From Trueperaceae bacterium (GTDB lineage: Bacteria > Deinococcota > Deinococci > Deinococcales > Trueperaceae), in the NCBI GenBank assembly GCA_965213925.1, contig OZ243927.1, positions 320,001 through 384,000 on the forward strand: a DNA stretch of 64,000 bases. The letters are read 5' to 3'. This document shows, piece by piece, positions 18,845-26,712 of this stretch. A model generated the notes under the pieces. The model saw only the letters and a list, made by a program, of their open reading frames with translations. It was not told the origin of the DNA and did not search any database. Position 1 is the first letter of the stretch; every line of letters starts with the position of its first letter. A program made the translations under genes and the position numbers.

Positions 18845-19153
18845 TCAGGCGTCCGCGTCCACGGTGCGCGGCACCTTGAAGTAGCCCTCTTCCTCTTCCA
18901 CAGCGAGCCTCAGCGCGTCGGCTTGCTCCAGGCTAGGGCGCACGACGTCTTCACGAAACACGTTATGACTCGGCGTCGGGCGGACGAGTTCGTCCACGCC
19001 GTCCGTGTCGAGTTCGCGTATCTGCTCGAAGTAGTCCAGGATTTTGTTCAGGTCTTCTTTAAGGTGCTGCGTCTCTTCCGGGTCAATTTCTAGGCGAGCG
19101 AGCGTTTTGAGGTGCGCCATCTCCTCATCGCTGATGATTGGTTTATTGGACAT
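18845..19153 (-). CDS. gatC: Asp-tRNA(Asn)/Glu-tRNA(Gln) amidotransferase subunit C
   Basis: HLKTLARL, IL.YFEQI.ELDT.GV, NVFRED, GYFKVP. Confidence 0.93.
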   Translation of the reverse strand: MSNKPIISDEEMAHLKTLARLEIDPEETQHLKEDLNKILDYFEQIRELDTDGVDELVRPTPSHNVFREDVVRPSLEQADALRLAVEEEEGYFKVPRTVDADA

Positions 19154-19297
19154 GAAGTGAGTGTATCACGTGTTATCTCAGACTCTGCAGTCGGTTGGGT
19201 GGACGAGAGTACAGAATGAAAAGCGTACGCTTTTCATTCTGTACTAGCAATCTCCTCGAGGACGTTTGCCCTCACCCACTTGGGGTAGACTATCCCT

Positions 19298-19708
19298 ATG
19301 AAACGTGGTCTCAGTCTTCTAGCCATCCTTTTTCTACTCCTCGGTTGCAACGCCCCGTCGGAGGGGAGTGCACAAGCTCAAGAGGCGCAGGGCGAGTCGG
19401 GGAGCAGCCCCACCGCCGTGCGCACCGAGTTAGAGGGCGAGCCTGCGCTGGGCGCGGCTAAGGTGCTCGTCTATGTCCTCAAAGACAACCAAGGTGTCTC
19501 GGGCGCGACCGTTGAAGTGACGGGCGATATGACCCACGCGGGCATGGCTCCGGTCACAGCTACCGCGAAAGAGGTCGGCGCGGGGCTCTACGAGACCGAA
19601 GGCTTCGAGTTCACGATGGCGGGCGACTGGCTCCTCACCTCTGAGGTGGTGTACCCTGACGGGACCGAAGTAGAAGATACCACAGCGCTTAGCGTACCTG
19701 GACGGTAA
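19298..19708 (+). CDS. YtkA/FixH-like lipoprotein (Met/His putative copper site)
   Basis: LLGC lipobox; GDMTHAGM and FTMAGDW motifs. Confidence 0.8.
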   Translation: MKRGLSLLAILFLLLGCNAPSEGSAQAQEAQGESGSSPTAVRTELEGEPALGAAKVLVYVLKDNQGVSGATVEVTGDMTHAGMAPVTATAKEVGAGLYETEGFEFTMAGDWLLTSEVVYPDGTEVEDTTALSVPGR

Positions 19709-19719
19709 TTTGACCTGAT

Positions 19720-20043
19720 ATGAGACGCCCTTCGCAAGACACCCTGAGAACTGCCTGCCGCGCAGGTAGGGGGGCGTTCTTTGCGTTTCTGCTGACCTCG
19801 GCGCTCTTTGCCTCGCCCTTCTTGGCGGCGCAGCAGGATTTCGGGCATACGCACCCCGAGGGCACACCACCGCACGTCCACGGCATCTCGAGCGTTTTAG
19901 GTCACACCTTTTTGACGCCTGTTGTTATCTCGGTAGCGGCCAGCTTCGCAATTGTCTTTGTTTTATCCTTAACGTGTCCCTCTTTAGTTCTAGCACCTTT
20001 TAGGAACCCCGCGCACGGAGTCCGTGCGCCACCTTTTGCTTAG
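19720..20043 (+). CDS. Putative regulatory leader/arrest peptide (DUF2946/CruR-like architecture, C-terminal RAPP)
   Basis: Hydrophobic N-region, HTH..HVH cluster, second hydrophobic stretch, ends ..HGVRAPPFA*; directly upstream of copC. Confidence 0.7.
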   Translation: MRRPSQDTLRTACRAGRGAFFAFLLTSALFASPFLAAQQDFGHTHPEGTPPHVHGISSVLGHTFLTPVVISVAASFAIVFVLSLTCPSLVLAPFRNPAHGVRAPPFA

Positions 20044-20218
20044 TGTTTAACAAAGCTTCACACCTCTCTAGGTTTCTACTTGTGGGTTGCTCGAGTCTCT
20101 CGAGCGTATCTGTACGTACTGAGTTGACAAGGTGCAAAGCTAGTTCGAGCTTTTCTAAGCTCGGCAATTCTTAAAACAATCTCCCCTTGAAATTTCTAAG
20201 CAAAAGGAGACCTATCCG

Positions 20219-20725
20219 ATGAGATTTTCTTTTCTCGCGCTGACTCTGTGCGGCGCAGTATTTGGGGTGGTGTCGGCGCACGCATACCTCGAGACCTCAG
20301 ACCCCGCGACGGGGGCAACCTTACAAGTGGCACCAGAGCAAATCACCCTGAATTTTAGCGAGCCCTTGGAGCTGCGCTTTAGCACCTTCAGAATTGCCCC
20401 TTTAGAGACGGACGCAACCGACCCGCGTGAGGTCCAAGTTGCCGCGCAGGACCTTGTAGCGGAGGTTTTAGGGCAGGGCGATGACCGCCACGGTGACGCT
20501 GGCGATGAAGAGCACAGTGATGAGCATGGCGACGAATCCGGTGAGACGAGTGTCGAGGTGCTGACGAGCGAGCGGGCGACCCGAGAGGTTGCGCTCGGGC
20601 TAGGCGACCTAGAGCCGGGAACCTACGTCGTCATGTGGCGACTCCTCTCTACCGACACCCACACTTCGGACGACTACATCACGTTCACTATCTCATCCGA
20701 CGCGAGCACCTCCGCAGGGAATTAG
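20219..20725 (+). CDS. copC: Copper resistance protein CopC
   Basis: Signal peptide VSA|HAYLETSDPA (His1), LNFSEP, GTYVV.WR.LS.DTH; AAGGAG RBS. Confidence 0.9.
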   Translation: MRFSFLALTLCGAVFGVVSAHAYLETSDPATGATLQVAPEQITLNFSEPLELRFSTFRIAPLETDATDPREVQVAAQDLVAEVLGQGDDRHGDAGDEEHSDEHGDESGETSVEVLTSERATREVALGLGDLEPGTYVVMWRLLSTDTHTSDDYITFTISSDASTSAGN

Positions 20726-21657
20726 TGCTCGCGCTCGTCAAAGCGAGCTTGCTCTTGGGCGCAGTGCTGCTGATTGGCGCGGGCGTCTTCGGGCGTTTCG
20801 TCGCGCCGGAACTGCGCGACGAGGTGCGAACGCCGCTACGTTGGGGCGTTCTGACAGGCGCAGTCGTGCTGCTGATTAGCAGTGTGGTTGACGTGACGCA
20901 GACCGTGAATAACGCGCTTGGCAGGTACGACGCTGCATTTTTGCTCGAGTACATGCGCTTCACGCGCCACGGCAACGCGGTGCTCGTGCGGCTCGTGCTT
21001 GTCGTCGTCGTCGCGTTTCTCACGCTTAGGTGGACAGCCCCAGACACCGCACCCTCTTTCGCGCGGCGCACGAATCACGCGCTCTACCTCTTCTCGAGCC
21101 TCGGTTTACTCTCTACCTTTAGCTGGACGAGTCACGCGGCGACGATGGGCGGCACGCCCCCTTTGCTCGCGGACCTCGCGCACTTCGCGGCGGCGAGTGC
21201 GTGGTCCGGCGCGGTGCTCTACTTGGCGCTCGCCCCCGTGTGGGAAGAGGGACGGCGGGCGAAGTTGAACCGGGCACTCGCCAGAGTGTCCGCTCTCGGC
21301 TCCGCGTGCGTCACGCTCCTCTTTATTACAGGAGGCTACACCTCTCTAATGCATCTGCAAAACCCCGAACGCTTCGCCGCCTCACCTTACGGTCAGGCGC
21401 TCATCTATAAACTGCTGCTCGTCGCCATTATCGTCGGGCTCGCGGCGTACAACCGCTTGTGGCTCTTGCCTGCCTCACTCAAAGGTAAGCTCACGCGGCG
21501 CTTTAGGAGGGTAATGAGGCTCGAGGCTCTAACCCTCGTCGCCGTTTTTATCACCACGGGCGTCCTCACCACGAGCGCTATGCCGCACGAGCCCGGCATC
21601 CAGCCCACCGCACTAGAAAACCTCACGGCTTTGCTGCGCTACTTAGGCGCACGTTAA
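20725..21657 (+). CDS. copD: CopD family inner-membrane copper transporter
   Basis: Multi-TM; TSHAA, DLAHFAAASAWSG, YGQAL.YK, AAYNR, LEA; GTG overlaps the copC stop. Confidence 0.88.
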   Translation: MLALVKASLLLGAVLLIGAGVFGRFVAPELRDEVRTPLRWGVLTGAVVLLISSVVDVTQTVNNALGRYDAAFLLEYMRFTRHGNAVLVRLVLVVVVAFLTLRWTAPDTAPSFARRTNHALYLFSSLGLLSTFSWTSHAATMGGTPPLLADLAHFAAASAWSGAVLYLALAPVWEEGRRAKLNRALARVSALGSACVTLLFITGGYTSLMHLQNPERFAASPYGQALIYKLLLVAIIVGLAAYNRLWLLPASLKGKLTRRFRRVMRLEALTLVAVFITTGVLTTSAMPHEPGIQPTALENLTALLRYLGAR

Positions 21658-21666
21658 AAGGAGAGA

Positions 21667-22659
21667 ATGATGAAGCTAACGTTGATAACTATTTTTTTAC
21701 TCACGCTCGGCGCGACCTTCGCCCAACAGAGCGTCACTTTAGACTTCGCCGCGACGGTGAACGACCAAGAGGTCAGGTGCGGCGTCATGTATGAGGGCGT
21801 CGGCGCGCAGGGGTCAACCGTCGAGTTTCAAGATATGCGCTTTTACGTTTCAGACGTTCGCCTTATCAATGCGGACGGAGAAGAGGTTGTGTTAGAACTC
21901 GAGCCCAACCAGTGGCAGCACCAAGATGTCGCTCTCCTAGACTTCGAAGACGGCACCGCCCGCTGCGCCGAGTCGGGCAACGAGGCAATGAATAGCACCG
22001 TAACGGGAAGCGTACCCGCGGGAGAGTACACGGGCGTGGTGTTTACGCTCGGCGTCCCCTTCGACCTCAACCACGCGGACGTAGCAACTGCGCCCACGCC
22101 CTTAAACGTCTCCTCGATGTGGTGGAGCTGGCAGGGCGGTTACAAGCACGCTCGCATCGACTTGATGAGCCACAGCGCTATGGCGATGGACATGCAGTCG
22201 AGCACTCAAGAGAGCCATAACGCTGGAGGACACGGTGAAGGCGGCGAACACGCACAAGCTGAAGCCGAACAAGGTGAACATGCAGGTCACGGCGGCGCAG
22301 CCCAAACCGGACTCTGGCCCATCCACATCGGCAGCACGGGCTGCGACTCGAGCGCGAGCGTGATCCCCCCTGCAACACCTTGCGCGAATCCGAACCTAAC
22401 CGAAGTGCGTTTGAAGAATGTCGACTTGGAGAACGACGTCATCGTCGCAGATGTGAGCGGTTTGCTCAGTGGCGTAGACGTAAGCCAGTCCTTAGAGACG
22501 GCCCCTCCAGGCTGCATGTCGGGTCCTGAAGACCCCGACTGCAACGCGCTGTTCACCAACTTGAACCTCGCATCAGACGTGAACACGCAGACCTTCTTCC
22601 GCGTCGCGCCGCAAGGTGCAGCCTCTCATGGCGAAACGCAAGCCGATACGCAATACTGA
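21667..22659 (+). CDS. mbnP: MbnP family copper-binding protein (metallo-mystery pair, Cys-rich partner)
   Basis: Signal peptide; DMRFYVS, WQ..DVALLDFEDG, LGVPF.LNH, MWWSWQGGYK (WxW), HIGSTGC, C..PN, GCMS..DPDC. Confidence 0.88.
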   Translation: MMKLTLITIFLLTLGATFAQQSVTLDFAATVNDQEVRCGVMYEGVGAQGSTVEFQDMRFYVSDVRLINADGEEVVLELEPNQWQHQDVALLDFEDGTARCAESGNEAMNSTVTGSVPAGEYTGVVFTLGVPFDLNHADVATAPTPLNVSSMWWSWQGGYKHARIDLMSHSAMAMDMQSSTQESHNAGGHGEGGEHAQAEAEQGEHAGHGGAAQTGLWPIHIGSTGCDSSASVIPPATPCANPNLTEVRLKNVDLENDVIVADVSGLLSGVDVSQSLETAPPGCMSGPEDPDCNALFTNLNLASDVNTQTFFRVAPQGAASHGETQADTQY

Positions 22660-22662
22660 GGC

Positions 22663-23794
22663 GTGAAACATACGCTCTTCATCACCGGATTTTTGTCGCT
22701 CGTCCTCCTCCTTTTGGGGGCGGGCACGCCCGGTTACGTCTGGACCTTGCCGCAAGGGTTCCCCAAGCCGCTCGTGCCCGAAAACAACCCGATGACCGAC
22801 GCGAAAGTCGAACTCGGGCGGCACCTCTTCTACGACACGCAGCTCTCGGGCAACGGCTCGCAGTCGTGCGCCACGTGTCATCAGCAGGCGCAGGCATTCA
22901 GCGACGGCATGAACACCTCGGTGGGCTCGACGGGTGAACCTCATCCGCGCAACTCGCAGTCTCTGACCAACGTTGCCTATAACGCCACCTTGACTTGGGG
23001 CAATCCGGTCTTAGAGGAGTTGGAGCAGCAAATCCTCATCCCCATGTTCGGCGAATTCCCGGTTGAACTCGGCATGATGAATAAGGAGGAAGAGGTCTAT
23101 GCCCGCTTCGAAGAGGACGCGCTTTACAAAAACCTCTTCGCCGCTGCTTATCCGGGTGAAGAGAACCCCGTCAACACGAGAAACATCGCCGACGCGCTCG
23201 CCTCCTTTACCCGCACGCTGATCTCGGGCGGCTCGCGCTACGACGAGTTCGTCTACGGCGGCAACAGAGACGCCCTCACCACCTCCGAGCGGCTCGGCAT
23301 GGACCTCTTCTTTAGTGAAAGGACCGAGTGCCACCACTGTCACGGCGGCTTCAACTTCACGCACTCGGTCAAGCATCAAAACAACGCGCAGTTCGTGGAG
23401 AAGTCCTTTCATAACACCGGGCTCTACAACGTGGACGGTCAAGGCGCGTACCCGACGGGCAATACGGGCGTGTTCGAGGTTACGGGTAAGCGCGCGGACA
23501 TGGGCAAGTTTCGCGCCCCGTCCCTGCGAAACGTCGAACTCACCGCGCCGTACTTCCACGACGGTAGCGCACAGACGTTGGAAGAGGTCGTGCGCTCTTA
23601 CGAGGCGGGCGGGCGGCTTTTAGAGTCCGGCGATTTTGCAGGGGACGGGCGCGCTGAACCCCAACAAGAGCGGCTTCGTGCGCGGCTTTTCGCTGACCGA
23701 CGAGGAGCGGCAGGACTTGGTGAACTTTCTGAAAGCGTTGACGGATGAGGAATTTATCACAGACGAGCGCTTTAGTGACCCCTTTGAGGAATAA
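22663..23794 (+). CDS. mbnH: MbnH-family di-heme cytochrome c peroxidase-like protein, with a +1 frameshift near 23653
   Basis: [16 protein letters not shown] and CHHCH heme motifs, [21 protein letters not shown]; conserved tail [30 protein letters not shown] continues in the next frame to TAA 23792-23794. Confidence 0.88.
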
Positions 23795-23899: not shown

Positions 23900-25039
23900 A
23901 TGGACACACCCCAGTTTGAAGCATCTGAAACTGCGCCGACGATGAGCTACGCGAGAGCCCGCCTCTACCTGGGTATTAGCTGCGTAGGTATGTGGACGAC
24001 GCTCTCGGTATTAGCGCTGCTTTTCGGTCTACCCGAGCGTGTTCTATCCGAGAGTACGCTCTGGTCTCTTGCGGACACCACGCAACTCGTAAGCGTCATC
24101 CTTCTCTACGCTTTCTTACAGGGAGCCTTTGACCTCTTCGGCGGCTTCGTGTTGCCGAAAGAATACGGACGCTACAAACCTAACTTGTCAGGTTTTCTTC
24201 TGCACTGGTTTCGCGGCGCGTTGCTGCACGGTGTGCTCTTGCTCCTCGTTGGTTTAATCCTCCTGGCGAGTGCGCGGCTCGGCGGTATCTGGCTGGCGCT
24301 ACTCGTCTTTTTGCTTTTGAACGTCGGCTTGATTTATGGACAGGTTCTGTTGGCGCGTCTCATCGGCGGGCTCGGCGTTCGACGCGAAAAAGGTTATATA
24401 CTCTTAAATGCACCTTATCCCCACCTCACGGGCGGCGTCGCTGGTTTCAAAGCGGTGGTTCTCGTTCCGCAGAGATGGCGCGACGTATTCGATTCTGAAA
24501 CCTTCGACCTCTTGGTGAAGCGCAAACAGACGCTAGCTGAGAAAGGCTCGAGGCGCTTGGGTCTTTTCGCCGCTCTTCTCTGGAACACGCTCGGGTTCAT
24601 TCTGGTGTACCTCGCAGCAGGCGGCACGGCGAGCGTCGCTGGGCTCATAAGTTTCAGCCTCTGGTCCACACTCTGGGCATTCTTAGGCGTGCTCGTCTTG
24701 CCGACGCTTTCACGGCGGGCGGTGTTTCAGGGGGACGCGCACGCGGTCTCGAGTGGTCAAGAGGTCAGCTTACTTGCCGAAGCTCTCAAGACCCTAGACC
24801 GTGACCAAGACGGTGAATTTAGACGCGGGCAAGCCGTCGAAACGGTCTTTCACCCCATCCCCTCAGCCGCGCGGCGCATTGAGAAGTTGGAGACGAGGGA
24901 CGCACCCCCCAACCTAGCAACCTGGCACGTCGCGAGAACGGCGCTCTACCTCTCGTGGGCGAACCTGAGTTTGCTCTCACGCGCGGTCCACTGCAACATC
25001 GGCAGACCGGAAGTGTGGGTATTTCTGCCGAGTGACTAA
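23900..25039 (+). CDS. Multi-pass membrane protein, distantly M48/Ste24-like, no HExxH
   Basis: Several TM helices; FHPIPSAARRI resembles the M48 HP..RI motif; C-terminal RAVHCNIGRPEVW. Confidence 0.7.
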   Translation: MDTPQFEASETAPTMSYARARLYLGISCVGMWTTLSVLALLFGLPERVLSESTLWSLADTTQLVSVILLYAFLQGAFDLFGGFVLPKEYGRYKPNLSGFLLHWFRGALLHGVLLLLVGLILLASARLGGIWLALLVFLLLNVGLIYGQVLLARLIGGLGVRREKGYILLNAPYPHLTGGVAGFKAVVLVPQRWRDVFDSETFDLLVKRKQTLAEKGSRRLGLFAALLWNTLGFILVYLAAGGTASVAGLISFSLWSTLWAFLGVLVLPTLSRRAVFQGDAHAVSSGQEVSLLAEALKTLDRDQDGEFRRGQAVETVFHPIPSAARRIEKLETRDAPPNLATWHVARTALYLSWANLSLLSRAVHCNIGRPEVWVFLPSD

Positions 25040-25113
25040 CGGAGTAAAAGCTAGTGCGGGACGTTTGCAACTGGTTCGCCCTGGTGCACAACCCTAAAAT
25101 TAAGGAAGTAACT

Positions 25114-26712
25114 ATGGACGCGACTCAACGCACGCGCAATCAGCGCACCTCACGGGGACACAAACCGATTGTCGAGCAGCCCAGGGGCTTCGACCTCTTT
25201 GCGCTGCCAGGGTTGCGCCGCTTCATCCGCTGGAAATACGCCCGCTTCGTCTTTCAACTCCCGCTGCTGATCCTCGCCGTGTTCGTCATCTGGGACGGCT
25301 TCGCCGGGCGGCAGGTCGCCCCGCGCAACATCGCCACGACGACGGTGTGGCTGCACTATAGGGGGCTCGTCGTGATCGCGCTCGCGCTCATCGGCAACGC
25401 CTTTTGCGCCGCGTGCCCTTTGATGTTGACGCGAGGTGCGACGAAACGCTTGGAGCGCTTTTTGCCGCGCAAGCTGAGCTTCCCTAAACCGCTCAAAAAC
25501 AAATATCTCGTTACCGTCCTCCTCCTGTTCTTCTTTTTCTCCTACGAATACTTCGACCTCTGGGCGAGTCCTTGGCTCACTGCCTGGCTCGTCCTCGCGT
25601 ACTTCGGGGGCGCACTCGCTGTTGACACGCTCTTCCCAGCGGGGACGTTCTGCCGCTACGTGTGCCCCTTGGGAAACTTCAACTTCGCTTACTCGTCGGC
25701 GTCGCCTACGCAGATTACGGCGGTAGACCACGACATCTGTAGGAGCTGTGAGCACAAGCCGTGTTTGCACGGGCGCGACACAGACAGTGTTGAGAGAAAA
25801 GGACTGAGGACTGAGAGGTCAGAAGTTCCTTCTCAGTCCTCAGTCCTGGGTCCTGGGTCCTCTAACGCCGCCTTCATCCCCCTCGCCGACATCGTCCACG
25901 CGAACGGCACCGGACACTTCCCCGGCTGCGAGACGGACCTCTTCGTGCCGACGATGCAATCCAATATGGACTGCACGAACTGCTTCAACTGCGTGCGGGC
26001 ATGCCCTTACGACAATGTCGCCTTAACCGTGCGGCAACCCGGCTGGGAGTGGACGCGCGCACCTTGGAAGACGCGGGGGCGGCTGCCGCTCATGGTGATG
26101 GGCGTGCTCTTAGCCTTCTGGGGACTTTTGAACGCCGTGGCGATGATCGGACCTTACTTCGACCTGTCGCAGTGGGTGGCGAGCACGTTCAACACGCAGA
26201 ACGAAGCCTTGCTCCTCGGAATTTTCTTCCTGACGACGACCCTTCTAGGACTCTTCGTCACGGGCGGTGTCGCCTACCTCGCGGACCTCTTGGGGCAGGG
26301 GAGGGCGAACTTTAGAGACGCCTTTTTGCGCTGGGGGTACGTCAGCGTGGCGCTCGGCTTCGGCTTTTGGGGGGCGCACTACCTCTTTCACTTCATGACG
26401 GGGGCGCTAAGCATCGTGCCCGTGTTTCAGAACTTTTTCGAGGCGAGGGGCTTTCCCGTTGACCCTAACTGGCGGCTCGCGCAAATTATCCCGTCCGACT
26501 GGCTTTTCCCAGTAGGCGCGGCGATCACGCTCTTTTACAGCTTTCTGGCGGTTTACGTGGTGGTGCGTATCGCGCTTAGAGACTTCGGGCGGCGCGGCGT
26601 TTTAGCGATGTGGCCGCCGCTTCTGTTCGTGCTCCTCTTCGCGGCGGTCGCGCTCACGGTTTTGGGGCAGCCGATGGAGATGCGCGGGACGATTCTAGGA
26701 CCGAGTTTTTAG
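25114..26712 (+). CDS. Membrane 4Fe-4S polyferredoxin (NapH/MauN/CcoG-like)
   Basis: FCAACP, FCRYVCPLG, CRSC...C, CTNCFNCVRACP plus many TM helices; AAGGA RBS before ATG 25114. Confidence 0.85.
   Translation: MDATQRTRNQRTSRGHKPIVEQPRGFDLFALPGLRRFIRWKYARFVFQLPLLILAVFVIWDGFAGRQVAPRNIATTTVWLHYRGLVVIALALIGNAFCAACPLMLTRGATKRLERFLPRKLSFPKPLKNKYLVTVLLLFFFFSYEYFDLWASPWLTAWLVLAYFGGALAVDTLFPAGTFCRYVCPLGNFNFAYSSASPTQITAVDHDICRSCEHKPCLHGRDTDSVERKGLRTERSEVPSQSSVLGPGSSNAAFIPLADIVHANGTGHFPGCETDLFVPTMQSNMDCTNCFNCVRACPYDNVALTVRQPGWEWTRAPWKTRGRLPLMVMGVLLAFWGLLNAVAMIGPYFDLSQWVASTFNTQNEALLLGIFFLTTTLLGLFVTGGVAYLADLLGQGRANFRDAFLRWGYVSVALGFGFWGAHYLFHFMTGALSIVPVFQNFFEARGFPVDPNWRLAQIIPSDWLFPVGAAITLFYSFLAVYVVVRIALRDFGRRGVLAMWPPLLFVLLFAAVALTVLGQPMEMRGTILGPSF

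Follow-up and report, generated by a model that had tools for sequence, protein, structure and literature searches.

Metal-sensing arrest peptides are a recent class of bacterial leader, represented by CruR in 2022, CutF in 2023 and 2025, and a proteome-wide survey of RAPP and RGPP motifs in 2025. Here we analyze a candidate member of this class in a 64,000-nucleotide (nt) window from a Trueperaceae bacterium of the Deinococcota (assembly GCA_965213925.1, contig OZ243927.1, positions 320,001 to 384,000), where a 107-codon open reading frame (ORF) with a histidine cluster and a terminal RAPP motif precedes the copper genes copC, copD, mbnP and mbnH. CruR (Bp2923) of Bordetella pertussis, the prototype of the DUF2946 family (PF11162), combines a CXXC motif with RAPP to place uptake genes under copper control (PMC9426467). 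The 45 residues between its metal motif and RAPP are conserved to within 1-2 residues, and the addition of five residues abolishes control. Copper relieves the arrest of CruR, and the output is Rho-dependent termination across a 162-bp intergenic region (PMC9426467). Members of DUF2946 are encoded by the first gene of an operon ahead of a long intergenic region, have CopC and MbnPH-like genes among their operon partners and carry a predicted export signal in >95% of cases; the signal peptide of CruR itself is dispensable (PMC9426467).

Three further groups of leader are relevant to the locus. CutF of Rhodobacter capsulatus is an exported leader; when the ribosome stalls close to its C-terminus, an RNA stem that masks the Shine-Dalgarno (SD) sequence of the following gene is opened (PMC9973294). 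It carries a CxxxC motif, a PPP-type motif helped or countered by EF-P and a short intergenic stem-loop, and it controls a copper-induced detoxifying oxidase (PMC9973294; bioRxiv 10.1101/2025.02.05.636593). The 5,334 CutF-like proteins include His-only clusters, numbers 14 and 17 of the sequence similarity network (SSN), that lie upstream of HupE/UreJ genes (PMC9973294). A GTDB-wide survey describes small, mostly exported upstream ORF (uORF) proteins with RAPP or RGPP ahead of metal genes and proposes their conserved Cys and His residues as metal sensors (PMC12992588). In that study RAPP and RGPP support arrest with varied N-terminal sequences, with RDPP and RSPP partially permissive; CopC is enriched downstream (133 RAPP versus 72 AAPP, and 75 versus 9), and arrest in vitro is shown for SLIV_16130 / SLIV_18480 of Streptomyces lividans, leaders that precede copper genes (PMC12992588). 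Lastly, SecM, ApdA and ApdP monitor protein export and control sec genes, with no metal-binding motif (PMC10951233).

Inspection of the window reveals a leader ORF with the translation MRRPSQ...GVRAPPFA*, in which the RAPP codons are followed by TTT GCT TAG. The first-pass annotation of this DNA had described a 107-residue ORF, an HTH-x-HVH cluster and RAPP two residues before the stop, all of which are present. The elements of the leader and of the RNA that follows it are listed below.

19720..20043, plus strand: leader ORF of 107 codons, with no Pfam or NCBIfam family, on which a His-type R-x-P-P leader family is founded here.
19768..19833, plus strand: hydrophobic, signal-peptide-like N-region at about residues 17-38 (...AFFAFLLTSALFASPFLAAQ), judged by eye from alignments and kept in close relatives.
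19846..19881, plus strand: His cluster HTHPEGTPPHVH, H43-T-H45-PEGTPP-H52-V-H54, residues 43-54, a presumed metal-binding site.
19882..20022, plus strand: linker, residues 55-101, poorly conserved in sequence and fixed in length.
20023..20034, plus strand: RAPP, putative arrest motif, codons CGT GCG CCA CCT, residues 102-105, with R102, P104 and P105 invariant.
20032..20043, plus strand: anti-SD strand CCUUUUGCUUAG, made up of the second Pro, Phe, Ala and stop codons.
20044..20218, plus strand: structured spacer of 175 nt, G+C 0.40-0.52 versus about 0.6-0.65 in the flanks.
20089..20105, plus strand: hairpin 1, GCUCGAG-UCU-CUCGAGC, the core of a longer helix at about 20081-20114, in the predicted minimum-energy fold.
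20146..20163, plus strand: hairpin 2, CGAGCUU-UUCU-AAGCUCG, in the predicted minimum-energy fold.
20180..20184, plus strand: UCUCC, a possible local SD partner, which pairs with GGAGA 20206-20210 in constrained folds once the long-range stem is opened.
20196..20209, plus strand: copC ribosome-binding region; CUAAGCAAAAGG (20196-20207) pairs with the anti-SD strand, and the SD AAGGAG (20204-20209) lies 9 nt before ATG 20219.

We judge it fairly likely that this ORF encodes a metal-sensing arrest leader through which the availability of metal governs translation of copC, the stalled ribosome unmasking the copC SD. Control would probably extend to copD, mbnP and mbnH behind copC. This reading draws on the conservation of the leader peptide, on a predicted RNA pairing between its stall codons and the copC ribosome-binding region, on the copper genes that follow, and on the precedent of CruR, CutF and the RAPP/RGPP leaders, for which such a mode of action is described or proposed.

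The leader ORF is a real gene under purifying selection. Comparison of the window with a genome of the same genus gives 30.5 synonymous and 14.5 non-synonymous differences over 106 codons (ratio of non-synonymous to synonymous change, pN/pS, 0.17), with a more relaxed substitution pattern in codons 61-106. An initial search returned eight homologues of 101-108 residues, one of them a hypothetical protein of Truepera radiovictrix, and RAPP and the histidines are invariant in all eight. Across 63 aligned family members, where mean column identity is 22%, invariance is confined to the columns H43, H45, H52, R102, P104 and P105, and H54 is conserved in at least 90%. Conservation of the HxH pairs and R-x-P-P in homologous loci, which the first-pass annotation had named as the check on its proposal, is thus what the alignment displays. 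R-x-P-P occurs at 64 of the 66 places where the family was found, the remaining two being cut by contig ends; the variable residue is Ala in 45, Asp in 8, Gly in 6 and Ser in 5, and one leader (L067) ends RAPPVA. The pattern H.H.{4,9}H.H occurs at 65 of the 66. In 63 of 63 measurable loci the Arg stands 45-48 residues after the last His (44-47 intervening), with values of 48 in 30 loci, 47 in 20, 46 in 10 and 45 in 3.

The N-region of the family is hydrophobic, with Pro and small residues ahead of the His cluster, a conserved pattern as judged by eye from alignments. The linker segment is Ala/Pro/Arg-rich in high-GC relatives; its sequence tracks genomic G+C and only its length is kept. The second hydrophobic stretch reported in the initial description is present in the window leader (about residues 62-93) but is not conserved in the high-GC relatives. 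Within the window, G+C drops from about 0.60-0.65 to 0.40-0.48 at 19900-20250, over the 3' half of the leader and the spacer, and the linker codons have a strong excess of T over A, with AT skew down to -0.48.

These observations also bear on whether the ORF might instead encode a small, stable copper-binding protein, exported or in the membrane, acting with YtkA and CopC, with R-x-P-P non-regulatory. Such a protein would suit an ORF placed between two copper-protein genes, with a metal-binding-like motif just after a signal-like region and purifying selection acting on the protein. We consider it very improbable, given that only length and not sequence is conserved between the His cluster and R-x-P-P, that the stall codons form a complement to the SD of the following gene, and that R-x-P-P ranks among the most avoided bacterial tetrapeptides (PMC12992588) and yet is invariant here.

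A six-frame search covered 364 genomes of the class, in six families. The leader family was found in 57 of them, namely the window's genome and 56 of 127 other Trueperaceae genomes, and in 0 of 236 genomes of the other five families; some genomes have two or three copies. Pattern scans returned one locus from genome contigs (L001, the same place as L004) and one incomplete locus from metagenome contigs (L068). Among 1.84 billion representative proteins, a profile search picked out 123 clusters at E<=0.001, 112 of them at E<=1e-10. Ten clusters were looked up, and the two with an organism name came from a Deinococcota bacterium and a Trueperaceae bacterium, both annotated as hypothetical. As seen in these searches, the family is small and sharply bounded. 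The nearest ESM Atlas clusters are hypothetical proteins of 102-106 residues, mostly labelled Methylomirabilota (score 0.96), and the nearest named cluster is 50% DUF2946 (score 0.92); we treat both as leads only.

The predicted pairing between the end of the leader and the start of copC is the most direct clue to mechanism. The 175-nt spacer and two hairpins of the first-pass annotation are present at 20044-20218, 20089-20105 and 20146-20163, and both hairpins appear in the predicted fold. To these can be added a feature absent from that annotation, in which 20032-20043 is a perfect 12-nt complement of 20196-20207, a site unique for this complementarity within the 64-kb window. The resulting anti-SD stem appears in both the minimum-energy and centroid folds of 20020-20240, with pairing probabilities of 0.97-1.00 in three fold windows (231, 271 and 581 nt). 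The spacer region folds better than shuffled sequences (z = -3.0), with 3 of 200 shuffles as good. When 20017-20044 is forced to remain unpaired, the predicted cost of opening the copC ribosome-binding site falls from 16.4 to 9.9 kcal/mol.

CTCGAG underlies both hairpins of the spacer. This palindrome occurs 95 times in the window versus 33.9 expected from dinucleotide-preserving shuffles, of which 0 of 100 reach 95, and because the over-representation is window-wide, the shared palindrome is not special to the spacer. An attenuator built from CTCGAG-based hairpins was accordingly rejected as a candidate. In 19600-20300 no Rfam match was obtained at E<=1.

Spacers of the window's type could be compared across two full sequences and a partial third. 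The same-genus spacer has strongly diverged yet keeps the 12-bp stem, with one A-U to G-U change, as well as both hairpins and the longer helix that encloses hairpin 1. Of the 37 consensus pairs in this comparison, three are compensatory, two of them in the extension of hairpin 1. The third genome of the genus (L001, 4300-5700) has an insertion sequence (IS) element with a DDE_Tnp_1 transposase (6.4e-15) directly after its RAPP-Ala codons. The insertion adds 15 residues to the leader ORF, which now lies about 1.3 kb away from hairpin 2 and the SD of copC. The hairpin 2 stem there reads TGAGCTT...AAGCTCA, changed on both sides, and the SD region is still recognizable behind the IS.

Outside the genus, the 36 nt after the Arg codon were compared with the SD windows of downstream ORFs in 51 loci, with four control segments per leader. 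A stem score of at least 8 occurs in 12 of the 51 loci, versus 1, 6, 4 and 2 of 51 for the four control segments; at a score of at least 10 the numbers are 6 loci versus 0, 1, 1 and 0. The stem sequence varies by lineage; between loci L021 and L032 one of its pairs switches from U-A to C-G through changes on both strands. As judged from these comparisons, the anti-SD stem is a real feature of the window's lineage and several others and not of the whole family.

Taken together with the described leaders, these features suggest the following course of events. The leader would be translated, its hydrophobic N-region targeting it for export. By analogy with ApdA/ApdP, the ribosome would stall with peptidyl-RAP-tRNA on the P-site codon 20029-20031 and Pro-tRNA on the A-site codon 20032-20034 (PMC10951233). 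At arrest, the four His would lie just out of the exit tunnel or at the far side of the translocon because they sit a fixed 45-48 residues before the Arg, a placement that we infer from the spacing by comparison with the known systems. The anti-SD strand would begin in the A site and extend to about 14 nt past the P-site codon, still within the mRNA channel. That is to say, the channel of the arrested ribosome would cover 20032-20043, the very strand that is predicted to pair with the copC SD region 20196-20207. Initiation at copC would be favored during arrest because the ribosome covers the anti-SD strand. Upon release and termination two codons later, the stem would re-form and mask the SD. 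The His would bind metal, most likely Cu(II), with binding altering the duration of arrest.

In total, arrest, metal binding, the identity of the metal, the export route and the direction of control are features that we infer from sequence and analogy. Because the controlled genes look like copper-acquisition and cuproenzyme-assembly genes, we lean slightly toward the direction described for CruR, in which arrest would persist and the genes would be on when copper is absent, and copper would release the ribosome and turn the genes off.

Several observations weigh against the unmasking of copC by an arrested ribosome, at least in its simplest form. With the footprint blocked, the predicted gain in accessibility is partial, amounting to 6.5 kcal/mol when the entire site is considered and 2.3 when the SD is taken by itself; the opening cost stays above zero because GGAGA then pairs locally with UCUCC 20180-20184, to which the SD is predicted to turn. 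The duplex energy of the window is reached by 2 of 100 shuffles and 3 of 18 natural windows. A wider test of duplex energies, confined to SD windows and using dinucleotide-shuffled and natural leader-body control windows, gives a mean z of only -0.76. In that test there are only 11 of 55 loci for which no more than 5 of 100 dinucleotide shuffles equal or exceed the observed pairing, and 436 of 985 leader-body control windows equal or surpass the stall segment in their pairing with SD windows. No obvious SD precedes the leader itself, which, unlike CruR, does not open its operon, a YtkA-like gene ending 11 nt upstream. Nor is the placement of stall codons beside the stop universal, as five members (L047, L048, L051, L053 and L059) continue for 45-52 residues after R-x-P-P rather than stopping within about 20. 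In these long-tailed members, release of arrest would give read-through up to the next gene, and the control logic may be changed or inverted. In L051, a CopC gene begins 7 nt after the leader stop.

On the same side stand the 39 of 51 loci that lack a stem of score at least 8. Another output must therefore exist in those loci, and this is one of the points that would suit a transcriptional output from the same arrest leader. The stalled ribosome would then keep Rho or a different terminator from acting in the 175-nt spacer, and masking of the SD would be secondary, irrelevant or additional. CruR itself, the RAPP copper leader studied most closely, acts through Rho-dependent termination across 162 bp (PMC9426467), and the spacer here is of similar length and lower in G+C than its flanks. 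We think this explanation unlikely. The spacer is predicted to be almost fully structured, which is unfavorable for Rho loading. A consensus scan of 19100-20400 found 0 sigma-70 promoter-like sites and no plus-strand intrinsic terminator-like site. Transcriptional control alone would leave unexplained the unique 12-nt stem onto the SD, its conservation and the compensatory change in relatives.

What the leader senses is a separate question, and its ligand set does not settle the metal, since the published His-only CutF-like leaders precede Ni/Co-type HupE/UreJ genes; this too weighs against the reading that we favor. The leader could respond to Zn, Ni or Co, as those SSN clusters 14 and 17 would suggest (PMC9973294), or to the state of the export machinery, which RAPP peptides of the ApdA/ApdP type monitor (PMC10951233). 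It could also work in the opposite direction, with copper lengthening arrest as in CutF, where copper induces stalling (PMC9973294; bioRxiv 10.1101/2025.02.05.636593). We regard these possibilities as distinctly unlikely when set against the downstream genes, which belong to copper-specific families or are their cluster partners, both in the window and in 44 of 65 loci, and do not encode Sec/YidC or Ni/Co transporters. A pure secretion monitor, moreover, would not need the histidines that are invariant here.

Sensing of copper by the arrested chain, which we prefer, can be carried further in a form that we hold only tentatively and think improbable in full. The four-His leader would be a dedicated periplasmic Cu(II) sensor whose 45-48 residue spacer corresponds to exit tunnel plus translocon, so that the His would sit at the outer mouth of SecYEG when the ribosome is at RAPP; metal capture would then pull the chain and release the arrest. 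In the Trueperaceae genus with a His-type leader ahead of the NapH-like Fe-S membrane protein and a Cys-type DUF2946 leader ahead of the CopC module, two nascent-chain sensors of different ligand chemistry might each report on its own copper pool or oxidation state and control consecutive stages of a single acquisition pathway.

The relation of the family to DUF2946 was addressed by comparison of hidden Markov model (HMM) profiles. With PF11162, whose gathering score is 23.7 bits, 1 of 63 leader-family members was matched (E=8.7e-4), and the window's whole genome gave no match over the cut-off, the best being 14.9 bits elsewhere in the genome. In the Pfam search, DUF2946 did not match the window leader even at E<=1. 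The 63-sequence alignment has no conserved Cys, in the form of neither CXXC nor CxxxC. A negative HMM comparison is what the first-pass annotation had expected of a variant, and what it stated about CruR (DUF2946, CXXC with RAPP, copper control of uptake genes) agrees with PMC9426467.

Its further suggestion, that the leader is the Deinococcota version of such a protein with His replacing CxxC, fares less well in both parts. Canonical CxxC-type DUF2946 genes occur in 43 of the 364 genomes of the phylum, 36 of them over the Pfam cut-off, and four of the genomes that carry them belong to one Trueperaceae genus. In the Deinococcota DUF2946 proteins (L070-L084), a signal-like N-region and a His-rich stretch accompany an invariant H-C-x-x-C and RAPP or RGPP. 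The spacing from the second Cys to the Arg, counted in 7 of 15 sequences, is 42-43 residues. Aligned from RAPP, the His of the leader family lie 3-5 residues further N-terminal, and the sensor regions of the two groups have no profile similarity. In three genomes of one Trueperaceae genus, a DUF2946 gene stands about 1.8 kb downstream of a His-type leader on the same strand; the order, as in L082:1-4201 and also L083 and L084, is His-type leader, NapH-like Fe-S membrane protein, DUF2946 (29.4 bits), a 211-residue His-rich protein and CopC. Since both types lie in one cluster in these three genomes, the His-type and CxxC-type leaders are, on sequence grounds, distinct and coexisting.

Alignment by hhalign of the leader family with 14 Deinococcota DUF2946 sequences gives a probability of 93.8% (E=1.8e-7). 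Dissection of this match gives 82% for the N-region without the tail, 48% for the mature part with RAPP, 2.3% for the mature part without RAPP and 0.7% for a reversed control. The similarity thus comes from the N-region and RAPP tail only, with the sensor regions alone at the 2.3%. Common ancestry of the His-type leaders and DUF2946 is possible from these profiles.

The genes that flank the leader in the window, all on the same strand, are as follows.

19298..19708, plus strand: YtkA-like lipoprotein gene (PF13115 YtkA, 1.3e-12), ending 11 nt before the leader start.
20219..20725, plus strand: copC (PF04234, 3.1e-19; NF033814, 5.8e-18), with its translation start predicted to be masked.
20635..21657, plus strand: copD (PF05425, 1.3e-17; NF033808, 2.3e-30).
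21667..22659, plus strand: mbnP-family copper-binding protein gene (PF20243, 1.4e-43; TIGR04052, 3.2e-82).
22663..23748, plus strand: mbnH-family di-haem enzyme gene (TIGR04039, 8.2e-139).

The Pfam and NCBIfam matches thus identify all four of the downstream genes copC, copD, mbnP and mbnH that the first-pass annotation had named; its placement of the leader upstream of a copper operon is qualified by the YtkA-like gene that ends 11 nt upstream on the same strand, so that the leader does not head the operon. The listed GTG start of copD lies 91 nt inside copC (20635-20725), and the true start is uncertain and probably farther downstream. CopC carries an acidic, His-rich insertion, GDDRHGDAGDEEHSDEHGDESGE, that splits its Pfam match, and the MbnP-family protein has an acidic insertion of about 45 residues, rich in His, Met and Glu, with the same effect. 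Beyond mbnH, 23900-25039 encodes a 379-residue membrane protein with sub-threshold similarity to M48 peptidases (PF16491, 4.6e-5; PF01435, 0.011), in whose translation an HEXXH motif was not seen. The cluster closes with a 552-residue membrane protein (25054-26712) that has NapH/MauN-like and 4Fe-4S motifs (TIGR02163, 5.3e-9, well below cut-off) and that might, as a guess, be a cupric reductase like CcoG.

Synteny was assessed with the window proteins as phmmer queries against 65 leader loci. A YtkA-like homologue lies directly upstream of the leader in 23 of the 65. Downstream and on the same strand, CopC occurs in 26 of 65, the NapH-like Fe-S membrane protein in 13 of 65 (in each case as the gene directly downstream of the leader), CopD in 11, MbnH in 4 and MbnP in 2. 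At least one same-strand downstream homologue of the window's copper-cluster genes is found in 44 of the 65 loci, and several of the others end early at contig borders.

Leaders of this kind are already published, and the locus embodies no new principle. The first-pass annotation had held the arrangement to be undescribed, and this stands only in narrower form: RAPP uORFs ahead of CopC (PMC12992588) and His-only CutF-like leaders (PMC9973294) are both in print, and the portions of the literature covered did not yield a His-only motif before copC/mbnP. Equally absent there were the Trueperaceae leader family, the six-residue invariant core and the tandem with a canonical DUF2946 gene, although supplements were covered in part and a listing in them is possible. 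The main text of PMC9973294 has no 'Deinococc', 'CopC' or 'MbnP', and three of its supplements, File S1 not among them, have no 'Deinococc', 'Truepera', 'cluster 14' or 'cluster 17'. Likewise, 'Truepera' and 'Deinococc' are absent from nine of ten supplementary files of PMC12992588, and four peptide motifs of the family are absent from the covered part of its uORF list. In Truepera, a cultivable and harmless genus, the family would offer a compact system for how metal binding by a nascent chain tunes ribosome arrest. An accession that we take to be that of Truepera radiovictrix reads 0/0/0 in the Fig. 4E table of the RAPP/RGPP survey.

The interest of the family lies instead in its being a clean natural experiment. 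Its ligand set is His-only and stands before copper rather than Ni/Co genes, and six invariant residues on a linker of free sequence and fixed length would isolate what the mechanism needs. In the window the stall codons themselves form the predicted anti-SD strand. In one genus the His-type and Cys-type leaders stand side by side in the same cluster. A family description would also give annotators a name for 123 clusters of hypothetical proteins.

The window leader has both shared and distinct features relative to each of the described systems. Like CruR, it is a small protein with an N-region that by eye resembles an export signal, a presumed metal-binding motif whose spacing from the C-terminal RAPP is fixed (45 residues intervene in CruR versus 44-47 here, counted from Cys in DUF2946 and from the last His in the leader family), a long intergenic region (162 versus 175 nt) and copper genes downstream. 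Unlike CruR, it has no CXXC; its invariant ligands are four His that stand 3-5 residues farther from RAPP, another gene precedes it in the operon, and its predicted output is SD unmasking rather than Rho-dependent termination. It resembles the CutF-like set in being shorter than 150 residues, with PP in its last 15 residues, a same-strand gene less than 1000 nt downstream and a signal peptide by eye, and it resembles CutF itself in the predicted 12-bp stem, 20032-20043 with 20196-20207, that would shield the SD of the next gene. It differs from CutF in having no CxxxC, and from the published His-only clusters in having CopC/MbnP rather than HupE/UreJ downstream. Its 107 residues (<300), RAPP two residues from the end and copC 175 nt downstream on the same strand are those of the surveyed RAPP/RGPP uORF class, and the variants found across its family (A, G, D and S) are those that are arrest-competent or partially permissive in PMC12992588; in contrast to the surveyed uORFs, it belongs to a separate sequence family with a His-only motif. 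With SecM, ApdA and ApdP it shares the R-A-P-P core, and unlike them it carries a metal-binding-like motif.

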